Shown: positions 33,864 to 41,182 of the stretch, one piece after another
Numbering within the stretch: position 1 is the stretch's first letter
Layout of the letters: every line of letters starts with the position of its first letter
Assembly: GCF_003334355.1 (NCBI RefSeq)
Contig: NZ_QOWP01000031.1
Direction: 5' to 3' (one strand)
Source of the DNA: Escherichia coli
Lineage (GTDB): Bacteria; Pseudomonadota; Gammaproteobacteria; Enterobacterales; Enterobacteriaceae
DNA: 41,182 bases
The notes under the pieces: model-generated
Told to the model about the DNA's origin: nothing
Database searches by the model: none
Seen by the model: only the letters and a program-made list of their open reading frames with translations
Translations under genes and position numbers: made by a program

Positions 33864-36296
33864 TTACAACAACTGTGCCAGCCGGTTGATATCCGACTGA
33901 ATCGCCCCGGCGGTGACGTCGCGCCCCGCGCCAGGCCCACGGATCACCAGCGGGTTGTCGCGATACCAGCGGCTTTCGATGGCAAAGACGTTATCGCACG
34001 GCAGCAGTGATGCCAGCGGATGGTCTTCACGCACCGCCTCCACGCCCACACGCGCTTTGCCGTTGGCATCGAAACGCGCCACGTAGCGTAGCACCAGCCC
34101 CATTTCGCGGGCCGCTTCCAGCCGTTGCACCATCTGCTCGTTAAGTTCATCGCCATTTTCAAAGAAATGGTCGATGCTGCCGCCTTCGCAATGAGCAGGC
34201 ACCAGCGATTCCACACGTACCTGGTCCGGTTCAATGTTGTAACCCGCTTCACGCGCCAGAATTACCAGCTTGCGCATTACGTCTTTGCCGGAGAGGTCGT
34301 CACGCGGATCAGGCTCGGTTAAGCCCTGCTGCCACGCCTGATCCACCAGCTCGGTAAACGGCACGCTACCGTCGAATTGCAGGAACAGCCAGGAGAGCGT
34401 GCCGGAGAAGATCCCGCTGATCGACAAAATAGTATCGCCGCTGTCGATCAGATCGCGCACGGTGTGGTTGATCGGCAAGCCCGCACCGACGGTGGCATTG
34501 TACAGCCAGTGACGCCCGGTTTTTTCGAAGGCGTCGTGGATCTGGCGATATTTATTGCTGTCGCTGGCTCCCGCCAGTTTGTTGGCGCTGATAACGTGGA
34601 AACCGTGGCTGGCGAAATCAAGATACTGATCAGCAAGCTGCTGGCTGGCGGTAACGTCCAGCACCACTAAATCATCATACGGATGGGCGCGCATCCACAG
34701 GAACAACGACTCTTCATCCTGCTCAACCGCTTCATCGTTGAAGAAGGCTAACGCGCGGCTGGCGTCCAGCCCGTCATAGCTCAACAGGCTGCGGCGGCTG
34801 TCCACCACACCTGCCAGCACAAACTCAAAGCCGGTACGTGCCGAAAGCGTACTCTGCTCACGGGCGAACAGTTCCAGCCAACGGGAACCGATATTGCCCT
34901 TACCGAACAATACCAGGCCGATGCGTTTTTCTGCGCGGAAGACGGACTGATGCAGCCCCTGAATCAGGCTTTCGGTCGGGCCGGTGCGCAGTACTGCCAC
35001 CAGGCTGATGCCGTCATCGGACTGCCAGGTAAATTCGACCGGCTGGCCTTTCAGTTGCTGCCAGAAGCGGTGGCAATGCAGCGGGTTACGGGTGACGCCT
35101 GCACCGACCATCGCCACCAGCGCCAGCCCCTGACGCAGGCGCAGTTCGCCAGGTAATCCCGCTTCGTCGAGGATTTTCAGCGCACTGTCGGCCACTTCTG
35201 AGGTGTAGCAAAATTGCAGCAACTGGCGATCGTTATGTACGCCAACCGCCAGCGGGCGTACCTGCGCGCGTTTCAGGATTTGGTCGATCTCTTTATGCGC
35301 CAGTTTGAAATCCTGACTGGCGGGCACCTGAAACTCAATCAAACAGACATCATCGTGGCTGGTGACAATACGCGCACCAGTACCGGAGGCCAGCACGCGT
35401 TCAATGCGCGTGGAACCTTGATCCGGCGTGTAGCTACAGCGCAGTTGCAGGTCGATTTCGCTGCCAGAAACCGGCTGTAAAGTACGGGCGTGAAGAACGG
35501 GAGCCGCCAGGCGCGCCAGTTCGCTGGCCTCATCCAGACGCAGCAACGGCAGCAGGCAGGCATCTTTCACTTTACGCGGGTCGGCACTGTATACCCCGGC
35601 GACGTCGCTCCAGATGGTTACGCGAGAAACACCCGCCAGCGCACCGATTTGTGTCGCGGAATAGTCGGAACCGTTACGCCCCAGCAGCACCGTTTCACCG
35701 GCGTTGTTGCGGCTGATAAATCCGGTCACCACCAGACGTTTGCCCGGATGTTGCACCAGCAGCTGTTGCAGCAACGGGTAAGAAAGCCCTTCATCAACCT
35801 GCGGTTGTGCGGCGCGTTCAGCGCGTAAAAACTCGCGGGCATCAAGCCAGGCCGCTGGCAGCCCTTGTTGATTAAGTACCGCAGACATCAGGCGTGCCGA
35901 CCATACTTCCCCGTGGCCCACCACTTCCGCATACACTGCGTCGTTAATACCGCTGTCGAGCAGCGCCGCCAGGCGCTCAAGGTCGCTGACAAAAGCGCTA
36001 ATGAGGCTATCGGCTTCTTCAGCGGGTAGCAGACCGCTAATCAGATCACACTGATAGCGACGCAGCGTTTGTTGAACCTGATGCGCAGAGAGACGATCGG
36101 TCTGGCTTAGTTTCAACCAGTTAATCAACTGGTTAGTGGTGCTACCGGCAGCGGAAACCACCATCATATCGTCAGGCTGAGAGTACTCCGCCATAATGCC
36201 CGCGACACGCAAATAACACTTCACATCAGCCAGACTACTGCCACCAAATTTATGCAGCTGACGACCTTTCGCCCCTGCCTGCGCAATCACACTCAT
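33864..36296 (-). CDS. metL: Bifunctional aspartokinase II / homoserine dehydrogenase II MetL
   Basis: 810-aa ORF MSVIAQAGAKGRQLHKFGGSSLADVKCY...; aspartokinase N-terminal plus homoserine dehydrogenase C-terminal. Confidence 0.93.
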   Translation of the reverse strand: MSVIAQAGAKGRQLHKFGGSSLADVKCYLRVAGIMAEYSQPDDMMVVSAAGSTTNQLINWLKLSQTDRLSAHQVQQTLRRYQCDLISGLLPAEEADSLISAFVSDLERLAALLDSGINDAVYAEVVGHGEVWSARLMSAVLNQQGLPAAWLDAREFLRAERAAQPQVDEGLSYPLLQQLLVQHPGKRLVVTGFISRNNAGETVLLGRNGSDYSATQIGALAGVSRVTIWSDVAGVYSADPRKVKDACLLPLLRLDEASELARLAAPVLHARTLQPVSGSEIDLQLRCSYTPDQGSTRIERVLASGTGARIVTSHDDVCLIEFQVPASQDFKLAHKEIDQILKRAQVRPLAVGVHNDRQLLQFCYTSEVADSALKILDEAGLPGELRLRQGLALVAMVGAGVTRNPLHCHRFWQQLKGQPVEFTWQSDDGISLVAVLRTGPTESLIQGLHQSVFRAEKRIGLVLFGKGNIGSRWLELFAREQSTLSARTGFEFVLAGVVDSRRSLLSYDGLDASRALAFFNDEAVEQDEESLFLWMRAHPYDDLVVLDVTASQQLADQYLDFASHGFHVISANKLAGASDSNKYRQIHDAFEKTGRHWLYNATVGAGLPINHTVRDLIDSGDTILSISGIFSGTLSWLFLQFDGSVPFTELVDQAWQQGLTEPDPRDDLSGKDVMRKLVILAREAGYNIEPDQVRVESLVPAHCEGGSIDHFFENGDELNEQMVQRLEAAREMGLVLRYVARFDANGKARVGVEAVREDHPLASLLPCDNVFAIESRWYRDNPLVIRGPGAGRDVTAGAIQSDINRLAQLL

Positions 36297-36298
36297 TT

Positions 36299-37459
36299 TT
36301 ACCCCTTGTTTGCAGCCCGGAAGCCATTTTCCAGGTCGGCAATTAAATCTTCGCCATCTTCAATACCGGTGGAGATACGCAGCAGCGTCTCGGAGATCCC
36401 GGCGGCAGCACGCGCTTCTGGTGCCATGCCTGCATGTGTCATGGTTGCGGCGTGAGAGATTAAACTTTCCACTCCCCCTAATGATTCCGCCAGCGTAAAC
36501 AACGACAGCCCGCCCAGGAAACGACGCAGCGTCTGCTCATCGCCATCCAGTTCAAAACTCAACATTGCGCCAAAGCCTTTTTGCTGGCGCGCGGCAATTT
36601 CATGCCCCTGATTTTCCGGCAGCGACGGGTGATACAGTTTTTTCACCAACGGCTGGGTTTGCAGATATTTCACAATCGCCTGCGCGTTGCGCTGGGCCAA
36701 CTCCATGCGCGGCACCAGCGTTCGCAACCCGCGTAGCAGCAGATAGCTGTCAAACGCGCCGCCCGTCACGCCAATATTGTTTGCCCACCAGGCAAGTTCA
36801 GTGACAACGTCCGGGTCTTTAGCAATCACCACGCCAGCCACCACGTCAGAGTGACCGTTCAGATATTTCGTGCATGAATGCAACACCAGATCGGCACCTA
36901 ATGCCAGCGGATTTTGTAATGCCGGGCTTAAGAAGGTGTTATCCACCACGCTCACCGCCCCGACTTCCCTAGCCAGATGGCAGATTTTCGCAATATCCAC
37001 GACGCGTAACAATGGATTACTTGGGCTTTCTACCAGTACCAGTTTGGGTTTTTCTGCCAGCGCTGCCCGTAATGCCTGTTCATCGCCTTGATCAACAAAC
37101 AACACGCGATAGCAACCGCGTTTCGCCAGGCTGTCGAACAGGCGATAGCTACCGCCGTAGCAGTCGTGCGGCGCAACCAGCAGATCGCCTGGTTTCAAAA
37201 AGACGGTCGTTACCAGGTGAATCGCGGACATGCCGGTATTAGTAAGTACTGCACCAGCACCGCCTTCCAGTTCTGCCAGCGCACGCTGAACCACATCGCG
37301 CGTTGGGTTGCCGCGACGCGAGTAATCATGCGCGCGCGGTTCATTAAATCCGGTAAAGTTATAGGTACTGGAAAGATGGATCGGTGGGACAACGCAACCA
37401 TACTGTTCGTCGTCATTTAACCCGCTACGCACTGCGATGGTGGCCTGTTTACGCGTCAT
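36299..37459 (-). CDS. metB: Cystathionine gamma-synthase MetB
   Basis: Trimmed to MTRKQATIAVRSGLNDDEQYG... (386 aa); PLP-dependent family; cat at 37457-37459; 2-bp gap to metL. Confidence 0.92.
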   Translation of the reverse strand: MTRKQATIAVRSGLNDDEQYGCVVPPIHLSSTYNFTGFNEPRAHDYSRRGNPTRDVVQRALAELEGGAGAVLTNTGMSAIHLVTTVFLKPGDLLVAPHDCYGGSYRLFDSLAKRGCYRVLFVDQGDEQALRAALAEKPKLVLVESPSNPLLRVVDIAKICHLAREVGAVSVVDNTFLSPALQNPLALGADLVLHSCTKYLNGHSDVVAGVVIAKDPDVVTELAWWANNIGVTGGAFDSYLLLRGLRTLVPRMELAQRNAQAIVKYLQTQPLVKKLYHPSLPENQGHEIAARQQKGFGAMLSFELDGDEQTLRRFLGGLSLFTLAESLGGVESLISHAATMTHAGMAPEARAAAGISETLLRISTGIEDGEDLIADLENGFRAANKG

Positions 37460-37509
37460 GTGATGAAGTTCCCTGGGCTTGGTCGGTGAAATGTCAGGCA
37501 CCAGAGTAA

Positions 37510-37545
37510 ACATTGTGTTAATGGACGTCAATACATCTGGACATC
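37510..37545. promoter_or_regulatory. Met-box-like repeats in the divergent metB/metJ control region
   Basis: TGGACGTC AATACATC TGGACATC TAAACTTC: tandem 8-mers related to AGACGTCT between divergent metB and metJ. Confidence 0.5.
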
Positions 37546-37735
37546 TAAACTTCTTTGCGTATAGATTGAGCAAATCCCAAATAGCCGTTAAAATTATATG
37601 CATTATCACGCCGACAGGTGCATTACACGATGTCACGGTAACGCCTGTACGGTAAACTATGCGGGTTTACGGTCAGTACCCACATAAATTGTGTGGTCTG
37701 GTCTCAATTTATTGACGAAGAGGATTAAGTATCTC

Positions 37736-38053: not shown

Positions 38054-38082
38054 AGCAAAAAAGAGCGGCGCGGAGTGGAATC

Positions 38083-38181
38083 GCCTGATGCGCTACGCTT
38101 ATCAGGCCTACGTCATATTGCAATTTATTGAATTTGCACGAACTTGTAGGCCGGATAAGGCGTTCACGCCGCATCCGGCAT
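38083..38181. repeat. REP/BIME cluster
   Basis: GCCTGATGCGCTACGCTTATCAGGCCTACG ... TGTAGGCCGGATAAGGCGTTCACGCCGCATCCGGCA. Confidence 0.8.
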
Positions 38182-38236
38182 AAACAACGAGCACGTTGTC
38201 TGCGACCCACCGCTTTTTATACATGGACGTTTAACT

Positions 38237-38845
38237 ATGAAAAACAGGCTGCTGATCCTCAGCCTGCTGGTTTCTGTACCTGCCTTTGCCTGGCAGCCAC
38301 AAACCGGCGACATCATCTTTCAGATCTCTCGCTCATCGCAAAGTAAAGCGATCCAACTGGCGACCCATTCCGATTATAGCCACACCGGTATGCTGGTGAT
38401 ACGCAACAAAAAGCCCTACGTTTTTGAAGCGGTCGGCCCGGTGAAATACACCCCGCTCAAGCAGTGGATCGCCCATGGTGAAAAGGGCAAATACGTTGTT
38501 CGCCGCGTTGAAGGCGGACTGAGTGTTGAACAACAGCAAAAACTGGCGCAAACGGCAAAACGTTATCTCGGTAAACCGTATGATTTCAGCTTCTCATGGA
38601 GCGACGATCGCCAGTACTGTTCGGAAGTGGTGTGGAAGGTTTACCAGAACGCGCTGGGAATGCGCGTGGGCGAGCAGCAGAAGTTGAAAGAGTTCGATCT
38701 CAGCAACCCGCTGGTCCAGGCTAAGCTCAAAGAACGCTACGGCAAAAATATTCCGCTTGAGGAAACGGTAGTTTCACCACAAGCCGTTTTCGACGCGCCA
38801 CAACTCACCACAGTCGCCAAAGAGTGGCCGCTGTTTTCGTGGTAA
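38237..38845 (+). CDS. yiiX: YiiX, DUF830-family predicted periplasmic protein
   Basis: 202-aa ORF with N-terminal signal peptide (MKNRLLILSLLVSVPAFA); synteny with K-12 yiiX. Any enzymatic function is not evident from this sequence alone. Confidence 0.8.
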   Translation: MKNRLLILSLLVSVPAFAWQPQTGDIIFQISRSSQSKAIQLATHSDYSHTGMLVIRNKKPYVFEAVGPVKYTPLKQWIAHGEKGKYVVRRVEGGLSVEQQQKLAQTAKRYLGKPYDFSFSWSDDRQYCSEVVWKVYQNALGMRVGEQQKLKEFDLSNPLVQAKLKERYGKNIPLEETVVSPQAVFDAPQLTTVAKEWPLFSW

Positions 38846-38848
38846 TGG

Positions 38849-38950
38849 ATGATGAAAAAAATAATTCCCGCCGTAGTCTGTTTGTTGCTTTGTAGTTGCA
38901 CGACCTTTCCGCAAGCTGTCGCTCCGGTAAACGGTGATGCCTCCAATTAG
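38849..38950 (+). pseudogene. Short lipoprotein-like ORF whose 3' end runs into the IS1 terminal repeat (probably an insertion-truncated gene)
   Basis: ATG at 38849; translation MMKKIIPAVVCLLLCSCTTFPQAVAPVNGDASN*; hydrophobic N-terminus with a Cys-containing segment; the last 6 codons and the stop lie inside the IS1-like left inverted repeat beginning at 38933. Confidence 0.35.
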
Positions 38951-38989
38951 TTGAATTAAGGATATAATACTCGCTTTTAAGGTTGTTTC

Positions 38990-39262
38990 ATGGTCACAGT
39001 TAACCTTCATTGCCCCCGTTGCCAGTCCGTTCAGGTTTACCGTCACGGGCAGAACCCAAAAAGACATGATCGATTCCGCGGCCGTGACTGTCACCGGGTA
39101 TTTCAGCTCAGTTACTGTTACGAGCCCCGTAAACCGGGAGTTAAAGACCAAATCGCTGAAATGACTTTCAACGGTGCCGGGGTTCGCGATACTGCCCGTA
39201 CGCTGAAAATCGGCATTAATACAGTCATCCGAACTTTAAAAAACTCTCGCCACGAAGAATAA
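38990..39262 (+). CDS. insA: IS1 InsA-like protein (zinc-finger / HTH transposition regulator)
   Basis: 90-aa ORF MVTVNLHCPRCQSVQVYRHGQNPKRHDRFRGRDCHRVFQ... with CxxC...CxxxC zinc-finger-like spacing and a C-terminal HTH-like segment (ARTLKIGINTVIRTLKN); similar to remembered canonical InsA at roughly half the positions. Confidence 0.75.
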   Translation: MVTVNLHCPRCQSVQVYRHGQNPKRHDRFRGRDCHRVFQLSYCYEPRKPGVKDQIAEMTFNGAGVRDTARTLKIGINTVIRTLKNSRHEE

Positions 39263-39696
39263 CGTCATCCCCGGTCGCTCATGCTGATGTGGCACTCATC
39301 TGCAAACTTAGTCAGCAATGGAGCTTTGTCGGCAGTAAAGCGCGACAGCACTGGTTCTGGTACGTGTACAACACGAAAACTGGTGGTGTTCTGGCCTACA
39401 CTTTTGGCCCCCGGACTGACGAAACCTGTCGTGAATTGCGGGCGCTGCTTACCCTTTTACCATCGGCATGTTGACCACTGACGAATGGGGTAGTTACGCT
39501 AGAGAGTTACCGAAGGAGAAGCATCTGACTGGTAAGATTTTTACTCAGCACATTGAGCGTAACAATCTGACCCTGAGAACCCGAATCAAACGTCTGGCCC
39601 GCAGAACCATCTGTTTCTCGCGTTCTGTAGAACTTCATGAAAAAGTCATCGGTGCTTTTATCGAAAATATATGTTCTACTAATTGGAGTCATCACC
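39240..39696 (+). pseudogene. insB: IS1 insB-like transposase gene, interrupted by a frameshift
   Basis: InsB-like sequence is split across two frames: 39289-39474 (...QWSFVGSKARQHWFWYVYNTKTGGVLAYTFGPRTDETCRELRALLTLLP) and 39468 onward (MLTTDEWGSYARELPKEKHLTGKIFTQHIERNNLTLRTRIKRLARRTICFSRSVELHEKVIGAF...), with the shift near 39445-39450; the second frame has no stop before the right inverted repeat. Confidence 0.55.
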
Positions 39697-39837
39697 CTTC
39701 TGATAAGCTTTCCTTGGATGATTACCAGACTGAATACACAGCCAAAGATTTTTACCTCATTCTGCTCTTTTTTCTCAAATGACATATATTATATTTTACA
39801 TCATATTCATAGGCATATGACATTCCCCCGCCCCCCA

Positions 39838-40074
39838 TTATGTCATTGTGGGTTGATGTTGGGCTTTCATAAAAAAAACATCTTTTTTTGAACTAGCATT
39901 AATTATATTTACTTTATATATTAAAATATTTTCTCCATCTGGAAATATTTTAGCCACACAATATAAAGCAGCTGAATCCGAATTACTGAAAAATATATTA
40001 TCATCACCCATAACTCCAGCCATTAAATGACTGGAGACTAAAGCAAGGAAATAACAACATTGTATTGCCTTCAT
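39838..40074 (-). CDS. Candidate Rhs immunity protein (78 aa, signal-peptide-like N-terminus)
   Basis: ATG 1 nt after the Rhs TAA stop (minus strand GGGAGTAATTAAAATGAAGGCA, with GGGAG as a Shine-Dalgarno-like sequence); MKAIQCCYFLALVSSHLMAGVMGDD... The ORF track's longer 90-aa version starts inside the rhs gene. Very AT-rich. Role inferred from position immediately 3' of an Rhs C-terminal domain. Confidence 0.55.
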   Translation of the reverse strand: MKAIQCCYFLALVSSHLMAGVMGDDNIFFSNSDSAALYCVAKIFPDGENILIYKVNIINASSKKDVFFMKAQHQPTMT

Positions 40075-40075
40075 T

Positions 40076-41182
40076 TTAATTACTCCCTTGCCTGATAATT
40101 GTAACTCCATTCCCTTTAGCTTTGGGATTATATTTTAGATAGGTGTTATTTGGTGTTCCCAAGTAACTACTGTATTCTTTTTTTCCCATTCCATTCATAT
40201 AAGAATTCGTTAAATCTTTGCTTGAAAAATTTAGACTATCATAAACATCATTTTCTTTTGTTACTTTATTTCCTTTATCGTCAGAGTAAAAACCGTGAGT
40301 GTGATAATCGCCTACTCTCTCTGAACCTTCAGGGCATTTTATATTTCGCAAGTCTACACTATCATTATCATTTGAACTTATCGGATTCATGGGGAAATAT
40401 TCACCTTGCTTCTTACATATTAGTCCACCATATTCTTTATTCTCGTTAATTGATTCTCCATTACACATTGCCAATGCAAATATTCCAATATCATCTATAT
40501 TTTTTGATTTAAATTCATATAATCCTAATGGATCCATGCTATTCACCGGGCTCAGCGGATATGTATACAGGTTCCATCCCCCCTTCAGCCCAATCGGATC
40601 CTGAGTGATATACCTCCCCCGCAGCGGGTCATAATAGCGGTGGCGGTTATAATACAGGCCGGACTCCTCATCATACTGCTGCCCCGGCAGGCGGATGAGC
40701 TGCTGCAGCTGGTGCGGGTTCTCTTCATTCAGCTGGTTACCCCATTCATCGTATTCCCGGCGTATTTCCAGCCAGTCAGGCCCGGTGGCTGACGTTAACT
40801 GGCTGTGGTGGTTATAGTAAAACGCCGATGCCCTGCCATCCGGCGTGGTGATGCGCGTGATGAGGCCCGTCACCACATCCGGGCTGTATTCTGTTGTCCT
40901 GCCTGCGGCATCCGTCTGTGCCCTGAGCCTGCCCACCGCGTCAAACTGACTCTGCGTGACGCTGCCGTCCGCGTGTTCCTTTTTCACCACCCGCTTCAGC
41001 CCGCCTTCGCCTGCGGTATGCAGGACTTCACGGCGGTTCAGGCTGTCGGTGATGGTGATGCGGTCCTTCTCATACTGATACGTGTAGCTTAAGCCTGCCG
41101 GGTTTAGCTGTTCTGTCACCCGCCCGTCGCTGTCGTAACGGTAACGGATTTCCGGCCGGCCCGTGTGACGGTGCGCCACCAT
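40076..41182 (-). CDS. Rhs-family polymorphic toxin, 3' portion (YD-repeat core end + DPxGL + 147-aa variable C-terminal domain); 5' end lies beyond the window
   Basis: ORF is open to the window edge; translation contains YD-repeat core sequence and the core-terminal motif ...[39 protein letters not shown], followed by a 147-aa AT-rich tail ([10 protein letters not shown]...RQGSN). Stop at 40076-40078. Confidence 0.85.

Follow-up and report, generated by a model that had tools for sequence, protein, structure and literature searches.

In an active IS1 element, the zinc-finger/helix-turn-helix (HTH) protein encoded by insA binds the inverted repeats, and a −1 ribosomal slip on an A6C motif fuses insA to insB′ to produce a DDE transposase of 231 amino acids (aa). 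IS1 prefers AT-rich targets, and its insertion gives a target duplication of 8–9 bp. The classical IS1 adjacent deletions (gal/chl) start at an IS1 end and leave one insertion sequence (IS) with no duplication. In this work, we analyzed an IS1-family element at positions 38933–39696 of a 41,182-nt stretch of the Escherichia coli contig NZ_QOWP01000031.1 (GCF_003334355.1); the whole stretch is referred to as the window, and all coordinates are given in it unless stated otherwise. We found that this element, located between the gene yiiX and an Rhs element, is an IS1-family member by descent yet a pseudogene, and that a deletion or replacement forms the joint at its left terminus, where the 3′ part of a resident gene is missing. 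The role of the A6C frameshift motif in IS1 has been described previously (PMC12428005).

The ends and gene layout of the element are those of the IS1 family. Members are approximately 740–800 bp long and have imperfect GGTGATG repeats of approximately 23 bp; the window element is 764 bp long, its termini read GGTGATG...CATCACC, and its left end (GGTGATGCCTCCAATTAGTTGAA) agrees with its right end (the reverse complement of GGTGATGACTCCAATTAGTAGAA) at 21 of 23 positions. Between the ends, insA is followed by insB′ in the −1 frame, and the two are joined at A6C. An earlier reading of the window that used no database searches (the sequence-only reading) had set exactly these boundaries and proposed an IS1 relative with an InsA/InsB organization; the inverted repeats, insA, the A6C motif, and a profile match to NF033558 all agree with that proposal. 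The features of the element are as follows:

38933–39696, plus strand: 764-bp defective member of the IS1 family (IS1H/IS1N subgroup), recognized from its ends, profile match, and alignments
38933–38955, plus strand: left inverted repeat (IRL), matching the right one at 21 of 23 positions and one position off the IRL of IS1N
38990–39262, plus strand: insA open reading frame (ORF), 90 aa, still open, with Cys31Gly seen in a 28-sequence alignment
39235–39244, plus strand: A6C programmed −1 frameshift motif of IS1, intact (TTTAAAAAAC), frame relations verified
39238–39474, plus strand: first piece of insB′, in the −1 frame as counted from insA, closed early by a TGA at 39472–39474
39452–39454, plus strand: C-run with a 1-nt deletion (CCC), the first insB′ frameshift; relatives have one base more
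39453–39782, plus strand: second piece of insB′, in the third frame, running through the right repeat into the flank (listed ORF 39468–39782)
39664–39667, plus strand: 1-nt deletion in an A-run (A4 where relatives have A5), the second insB′ frameshift, by which the natural stop is missed
39674–39696, plus strand: right inverted repeat (IRR), which holds the ancestral insB′ stop TAA at 39680–39682, now out of frame

A conceptual repaired protein of 231 aa, made with a −1 slip at A6C and one base added at each of the two homopolymers, matches the NCBIfam profile NF033558 (“IS1 family transposase”) over positions 1–199 of 199 (E = 7e-72; 241 bits, cutoff 100). A match of this strength is far beyond chance. 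The IS1 profile comprises zinc ribbon, HTH_Tnp_IS1, and DDE_Tnp_IS1 regions, and homologs of the repaired protein bear PF03811, PF12759, and PF03400. End to end, it is 84–87% identical to many intact 231-aa transposases annotated as IS1N, ISEc30, or “IS1 family” in Shigella dysenteriae and Klebsiella (IS1N), Izhakiella, Enterobacter, Salmonella, Pantoea, Cronobacter, Edwardsiella, and other hosts. No intact protein with more than 87% identity was found in a collection of 5.8 billion proteins. Canonical IS1A of E. coli K-12 (768 bp) is far more distant, as the sequence-only reading had supposed, with approximately 57% DNA and 39% protein identity. It has the GGTGATG repeats of approximately 23 bp, insA, A6C, insB′, and the zinc finger, HTH, and DDE_Tnp_IS1 domains in common with the window element, and it differs in length at five indel positions.

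Compared with the intact relatives IS1N (an iso-IS1 of S. dysenteriae) and ISEc30, the window element has 84–85% protein identity (79.5% DNA identity to the intact 766-bp IS1N), a nearly identical IRL, the same A6C motif, the 231-aa InsAB′ organization, and a C-terminus of FIEK(H/Y)MFY* that ends in IRR. However, IS1N is 766 bp long, intact, present in multiple copies, and makes duplications, whereas the window copy is 764 bp long, confined to a single locus, and dead. A 98.4%-identical copy at the same yiiX-RhsF locus is labeled “IS1-like element IS1H family transposase” by the annotation pipeline PGAP. Length (764 bp), inverted repeats, and both indels are shared by this copy and the window variant, between which 12 positions differ; the window also carries a private T at 39355. 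All other examined copies have C at this position (a Leu to Phe change in the dead insB′), and none of the 5,426 complete E. coli genomes searched has a 100% match to the window element. Copies of the window type (99.9% identical) are named “IS1 family transposase” by PGAP, and both of these types are flagged “frameshifted” in RefSeq. Based on these comparisons, the window element is very probably an IS1H isoform within the IS1N/ISEc30 subgroup, namely, a fossil copy between yiiX and the distal orphan-tip end of RhsF; the isoform assignment is indirect, by way of the 98.4% identity to the PGAP-named copy. The name IS1H is also used for one canonical IS1 copy in K-12. The genome paper of E. coli W reports one IS1H (insXY) in that strain and a partial one in Crooks/ATCC 8739 (PMC3032704). 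At the equivalent of 39238, P0001 of Izhakiella capsodis (L018), which is the nearest intact relative at 87%, aligns with TTTAAAAAC (A5C), in contrast to A6C in the window and IS1N. Its annotation nonetheless gives a 231-aa product encoded by a 694-bp range, and its frameshift site may differ.

The left terminus of the element interrupts a gene. In the window, the region is that of E. coli metL-metB-metJ-yiiX, and the IS starts 87 bp past the yiiX stop, directly after the following remnant:

38852–38932, plus strand: start of a TIGR02117/DUF2459 gene, 27 codons that encode its lipoprotein signal peptide, truncated at IRL (MKKIIPAVVCLLLCSCTTFPQAVAPVN)

The 9-mers adjoining the IS (CCGGTAAAC on the left and CTTCTGATA on the right) match at three of nine positions, and both are identical in the four same-locus copies compared. 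No adjacent direct repeat of 6–10 bp was found at the element ends, and thus the 8–9 bp target duplication of the family is lacking, as the sequence-only reading had noted. A shifted or degenerate duplication was considered and rejected, the best match being 7/10 and located away from the IS end. Among the relatives, an IS1N copy is flanked by the 8-bp duplication GGGAAATT, and a degenerate plasmid copy (L009) by TCGAGCTTG and TCTAGCTTG, which match at eight of nine positions.

To look for the empty site, 150 bp of each flank were concatenated and searched against the 5,426 genomes. None of these (0/5,426) joins the two flanks, and thus a simple-insertion allele is ruled out. The joined-flank query exposed genomes in which the left flank runs on into a gene annotated as “TIGR02117 family protein.” In AR_0369 and EC10, the order is yiiX, a gene for a 207-aa DUF2459 lipoprotein, and rpmE, with neither an IS nor an Rhs element. 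The 3′ 550 bp of this DUF2459 gene were found in 289 E. coli genomes, including BL21, and are absent from the Rhs-bearing loci. The gene order is metJ, arylsulfotransferase, DUF2459, and rpmE in Salmonella, and metJ, yiiX, DUF2459, and further on rpmE in Citrobacter. The presence of the gene at the same position in both genera indicates that it is ancestral. K-12 has no DUF2459 gene and a 60-bp spacer instead. The yiiX-rpmE interval thus has three alleles: the K-12 spacer, the intact DUF2459 gene (the 289 genomes), and IS1H with RhsF. All three part ways directly behind the yiiX stop and come together again at the stem of the rpmE terminator (CAGGCACAAAAAAAGCGCCGTGCGGCGC). Because the IS and RhsF stand in place of 550 bp of a resident gene at this junction, this is not a simple insertion, and the loss of these 550 bp explains the absent target duplication. 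The end state has the features of an adjacent deletion, namely, an endpoint exactly at the IS terminus, a retained IS, no duplication, and ancestral sequence gone on one side. The sequence-only reading had favored a deletion or rearrangement junction over a simple insertion and had pointed to strains without the IS for comparison; the missing DUF2459 segment and the intact gene that continues the left flank in such strains both bear it out.

The right side of the junction gave a different picture. The neighboring Rhs element is the one that we take to be RhsF, and from the IS outward, a 55-bp spacer is followed by the downstream ORF dsORF-f3 and then by the Rhs C-terminal tip and core, both on the minus strand as is dsORF-f3. 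The neighbors on both sides are as follows:

38237–38845, plus strand: yiiX, the conserved left neighbor
39697–39751, no strand: AT-rich spacer of 55 bp from IRR to the dsORF-f3 stop, 32–35% GC, seen only together with the IS; probably the side of the original insertion
39752–40075, minus strand: RhsF downstream ORF dsORF-f3, frameshifted (A8 instead of A9 at 39871)
40076–41182, minus strand: C-terminal tip and 3′ end of the Rhs core ORF, running off the window

We searched a 379-bp query from the right flank against the 5,426 genomes, and the dsORF-f3 protein against one genome per species for 100,044 species. The former gave 2,170 matches, all at the dsORF-f3 site, with the IS adjacent in every inspected locus. 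The sole match of the latter was an E. coli contaminant contig in a Lachnospiraceae metagenome-assembled genome, which has the same arrangement. A right flank without the IS was found neither in the 5,426 E. coli genomes nor in the representatives of the 100,044 species. The GC content is 32–35% to the right of the IS and 46–57% to the left, and we took the AT-rich right side as the probable side of the original insertion.

Among the histories that may have produced this junction, we consider one as the most likely and place about half of our confidence in it. IS1H would first have entered the AT-rich sequence directly beyond dsORF-f3. From IRL, it would then have transposed intramolecularly into codon 27 of the DUF2459 gene, deleting the DNA in between and leaving a single IS and no duplication. 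Subsequently, the copy would have decayed, and it would have been inherited as a fixed part of this allele or spread with it by homologous recombination. The classical IS1 adjacent deletions are alike in the single retained IS, the deletion from one terminus, and the lack of a flanking duplication; unlike them, the deletion considered here is deduced from the end state alone. An IS1-mediated origin of the junction is probable. Several points weigh against it. The view that the IS made the deletion has two grounds only, the absent duplication and the fact that IS1 is known to cause adjacent deletions. No intermediate, i.e., an intact DUF2459 gene together with RhsF or a dsORF-f3 flank without the IS, was found in the searched collections. 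Moreover, the three alleles end at the same rpmE terminator, which fits a wholesale allele replacement by homologous recombination equally well.

The strongest competitor, which we regard as possible and less probable than the adjacent deletion, is that IS1H and RhsF arrived as one block by IS1-mediated replicon fusion or one-ended transposition, with IRL entering the DUF2459 gene, such that the IS would be an island integration scar. In favor of a block arrival, the IS marks the exact boundary between chromosome and island, and no case of the right flank (2,170 genomes) lacking the IS was seen, the two being adjacent in every inspected locus. In addition, RhsE of other genomes has a 132-bp right-end remnant of an IS1H-like element directly beyond dsORF-e4, oriented as at RhsF, which hints at a recurrent IS1-Rhs association. 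However, a block arrival requires more steps, as a second IS copy and the 550-bp 3′ part of the DUF2459 gene must have been lost later, and AT-rich Rhs tips make good IS1 targets in any case. Furthermore, the DNA next to the IS at RhsE bears no relation to that at RhsF, such that no common ancestral IS-Rhs junction was demonstrated and a shared origin of the two junctions was rejected.

An IS-independent joint appears unlikely. Here, illegitimate or homologous recombination (an allele replacement at a yiiX-rpmE hotspot) would have formed the junction, with the IS as a passive passenger whose duplication was lost. The rpmE-terminator boundary common to the three alleles agrees with this, and yiiX is 95–96% identical between lineages compared with 98.4–98.6% for the IS, which suggests recombination in the region. 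Nevertheless, the breakpoint falls to the base at the IS terminus, and an unrelated deletion would rarely end exactly at GGTGATG.

The remnant at RhsE was observed in E. coli ECZP248 (L023 2501–2632). It is 93.9% identical to 39564–39694 of the window, has an intact A5, and lies 8–10 bp past dsORF-e4 in the same orientation as the IS at RhsF; on its other side, it is truncated beside an ISAs1/H-rpt element (ydcC). This remnant probably accounts for the median of two matching places per genome. A broader idea, that IS1H-type elements repeatedly bound Rhs orphan-tip arrays on their distal side, either through IS1-type integration or trimming of islands or because a dead IS was selected as an insulator between yiiX and the convergent orphan-immunity genes, strikes us as quite doubtful.

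A simple insertion whose 9-bp duplication decayed by point mutation would suit an old element (1.4–1.6% divergence between lineages), but it is effectively refuted by the missing 550 bp: the intact DUF2459 allele predicts AATGACTTTG after the left flank, and neither AATGACTTTG nor the next 550 bp are present; the flanks match at 3/9 positions, the best shifted match (7/10) is not adjacent to the end, and the adjoining 9-mers are identical in all four same-locus copies.

The transposase gene of the window element carries several lesions. In the intact 766-bp IS1N of S. dysenteriae, insB′ is uninterrupted from A6C to the TAA inside IRR, with a C-terminus of ...FIEKHMFY*, and all of the intact relatives use one −1 shift only and have one uninterrupted insB′ frame. 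In the alignment of the window element with IS1N, gaps in the coding region occur only at 39453 and 39664. These two single-base homopolymer deletions split insB′ into three frames (program-listed ORFs for the split gene: 39289–39474 and 39468–39782), and no single frame reaches a stop inside IRR. Due to the C-run deletion, the first frame ends at the TGA at 39472–39474, and due to the A-run deletion, the downstream frame skips the TAA at 39680–39682 and continues through IRR to 39782. The sequence-only reading had located the first break near 39445–39450, which is 2–9 nt from the missing base. Its remark that insB lacks a stop before the right repeat was correct in that the frame runs to 39782, with the qualification that IS1 normally has its stop inside IRR and not before it. 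The extra base at the C-run is present in the pO157 remnant, a 78%-identical plasmid copy, K-12 IS1A, and a metagenome copy (L025). At the second run, A5 is found in the 92%-identical copies described below, the 78% copy, and the RhsE-locus remnant. When A5 is restored in the window, the C-terminus becomes FIEKYMFY*, identical to that of P0001.

Conserved residues are lost as well. Within the CxxC...CxxC zinc finger, Cys31 is near-invariant in the 27 relatives of the alignment and is replaced by Gly in the window (GGC at 39080–39082). The motif CELDEQW is changed to CKLSQQW (Glu106Lys, Asp108Ser, and Glu109Gln), with AGT for Ser at 39310–39312, where all relatives have Asp. Asp165, Glu190, and Glu215 are retained. 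The conserved acidic positions are Asp108, Asp165, and Glu190/Glu215, and Asp108 may be the first catalytic Asp; this assignment draws on conservation and on the IS1 DDE motif reported by Ohta et al. (2002). Judging from the sequence, the gene is destroyed and this copy can no longer be expected to make a transposase. The sequence-only reading had also taken the transposase to be inactive, for which the two breaks in insB′ as well as Cys31Gly and Asp108Ser, both unseen at that time, provide the grounds.

Except for the C-run in one metagenome contig, these lesions are common to the copies examined at this locus. We sampled 60 full-length rows from the matches in about 2,400 E. coli assemblies. 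A length of 763 bp occurs in one variant and in the copies of the 92% type, and all other uninterrupted matches are 764 bp long. The absence of a repaired 765- or 766-bp copy from this sample indicates that the frame breaks are real, old lesions rather than sequencing errors. Both indels occur in the four same-locus copies aligned base by base, and the A-run deletion, Cys31Gly, and Asp108Ser were found in every examined copy at this locus, L025 among them. The element has diverged by 1.4–1.6% between lineages. In insA, copies at this locus have three synonymous and three or four non-synonymous differences, including changes at conserved residues (H19R and D67Y), a mixture that suggests drift and not selection. 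A domesticated insA was rejected on the basis of the lost zinc-finger Cys and of non-synonymous changes as numerous as synonymous ones, including those two at conserved residues.

Two further types of copies differ at the homopolymers. The metagenome contig L025 (ENA ERZ27262323, contig k119_31431; equivalent to 38868–40032) covers the yiiX-IS-dsORF-f3 locus and has CCCC at the C-run, such that the first frameshift is absent, together with A4, KLSQQW, and a 164-aa read-through ORF (P0098). The C-run deletion may thus be later and polymorphic, or may have been reverted by slippage, and for this single contig, an earlier state, a reversion by slippage, and an error of assembly are all conceivable. 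The 92%-identical IS1 copy in E. coli L26 (L006 3001–3763) and LR-31 (L010 1501–2263) is found at another locus, between a transketolase fragment and a ProQ/FinO pseudogene. It has the C-run deletion, keeps Cys31, CELDEQW, and A5, carries extra 1-nt deletions of its own, and has no target duplication. The C-run loss common to this copy and the window may be an independent homopolymer slip.

That the frame breaks are sequencing or assembly errors, or a native three-frame layout with extra programmed frameshifts and a transposase still made, is extremely improbable: both indels lie in homopolymers and the C-run is restored in one metagenome contig, but the 60 rows include 764- and 763-bp copies only, four base-aligned copies carry both indels, the intact relatives use a single −1 shift with no intact element of the same frame structure among them, the invariant Asp and the zinc-finger Cys are lost too, a second locus with a copy of at least 95% identity was not encountered in the sampled rows or inspected loci, and PGAP flags a frameshifted pseudogene.

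The element is widespread at a single locus. With presence defined as a match over at least 80% of the IS query, it was found in 2,401 of the 5,426 genomes, and the right flank in 2,170; the copy is thus a fixed feature at the edge of the RhsF toxin island in about 40% of E. coli genomes. The 99.9%-identical same-locus copy occurs in about 1,500 E. coli records. The seven inspected genome loci (ATCC 8739, CFSAN061768, O157:H7 FRIK2455, CFSAN027346, YZB902, A1_181, and the window) and two stray contigs are all at yiiX-RhsF, and the 60 sampled rows and the inspected loci gave no second site for a copy of 95% identity or more. The distance from the end of the Rhs gene to rpmE is 159 bp in complete genomes. 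This is the Rhs locus that Jackson et al. catalogued at yiiX-priA (2009; PMC2935791), and the E. coli W paper places it at b3936-b3937, present in W and Crooks and absent from K-12 and B (PMC3032704).

Some variation was observed around the element. In a few genomes, the IS1H fossil is itself interrupted by an IS1F-type IS1 in the opposite orientation (E. coli A1_181, L028 1001–2540; also H48–H50). For dsORF-f3, the last of the RhsF downstream ORFs, the run at 39871 is A8 in the window and A9 in ATCC 8739, YZB902, and L025, i.e., this homopolymer is polymorphic across strains; the ORF is also flagged as frameshifted by PGAP in O157:H7, CFSAN027346, and A1_181. The metJ-yiiX spacer (38054–38236) is 183 bp in the window, ATCC 8739, and K-12 and 59 bp in O157:H7 and CFSAN061768, corresponding to a 124-bp indel. 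Approximately 40 clustered single-nucleotide differences from ATCC 8739 were found in metL/metB (35895–37690), and only approximately seven in the next 3.5 kb; the edge of this cluster looks like a recombination tract boundary.

The element is an already known, ordinary, and annotated one at a well-described Rhs locus. It belongs to the catalogued isoform group IS1H/IS1N and is already a frameshifted pseudogene in RefSeq. The junction is a textbook example of an IS-terminus deletion joint, and its importance goes little beyond annotation. For annotation, the small ORF at 38849–38950 is now identified as the stump of the DUF2459 lipoprotein gene. For the E. coli population, the yiiX-rpmE interval provides three clean alleles (empty, DUF2459, and IS1H with RhsF), and the fixed IS junction is a convenient lineage marker. 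For the IS1 family, all that is left of this IS1H lineage in E. coli is defective copies; as the search gave no intact protein above 87% identity, “IS1H” matches in mobile-element screens should not be taken as active elements.

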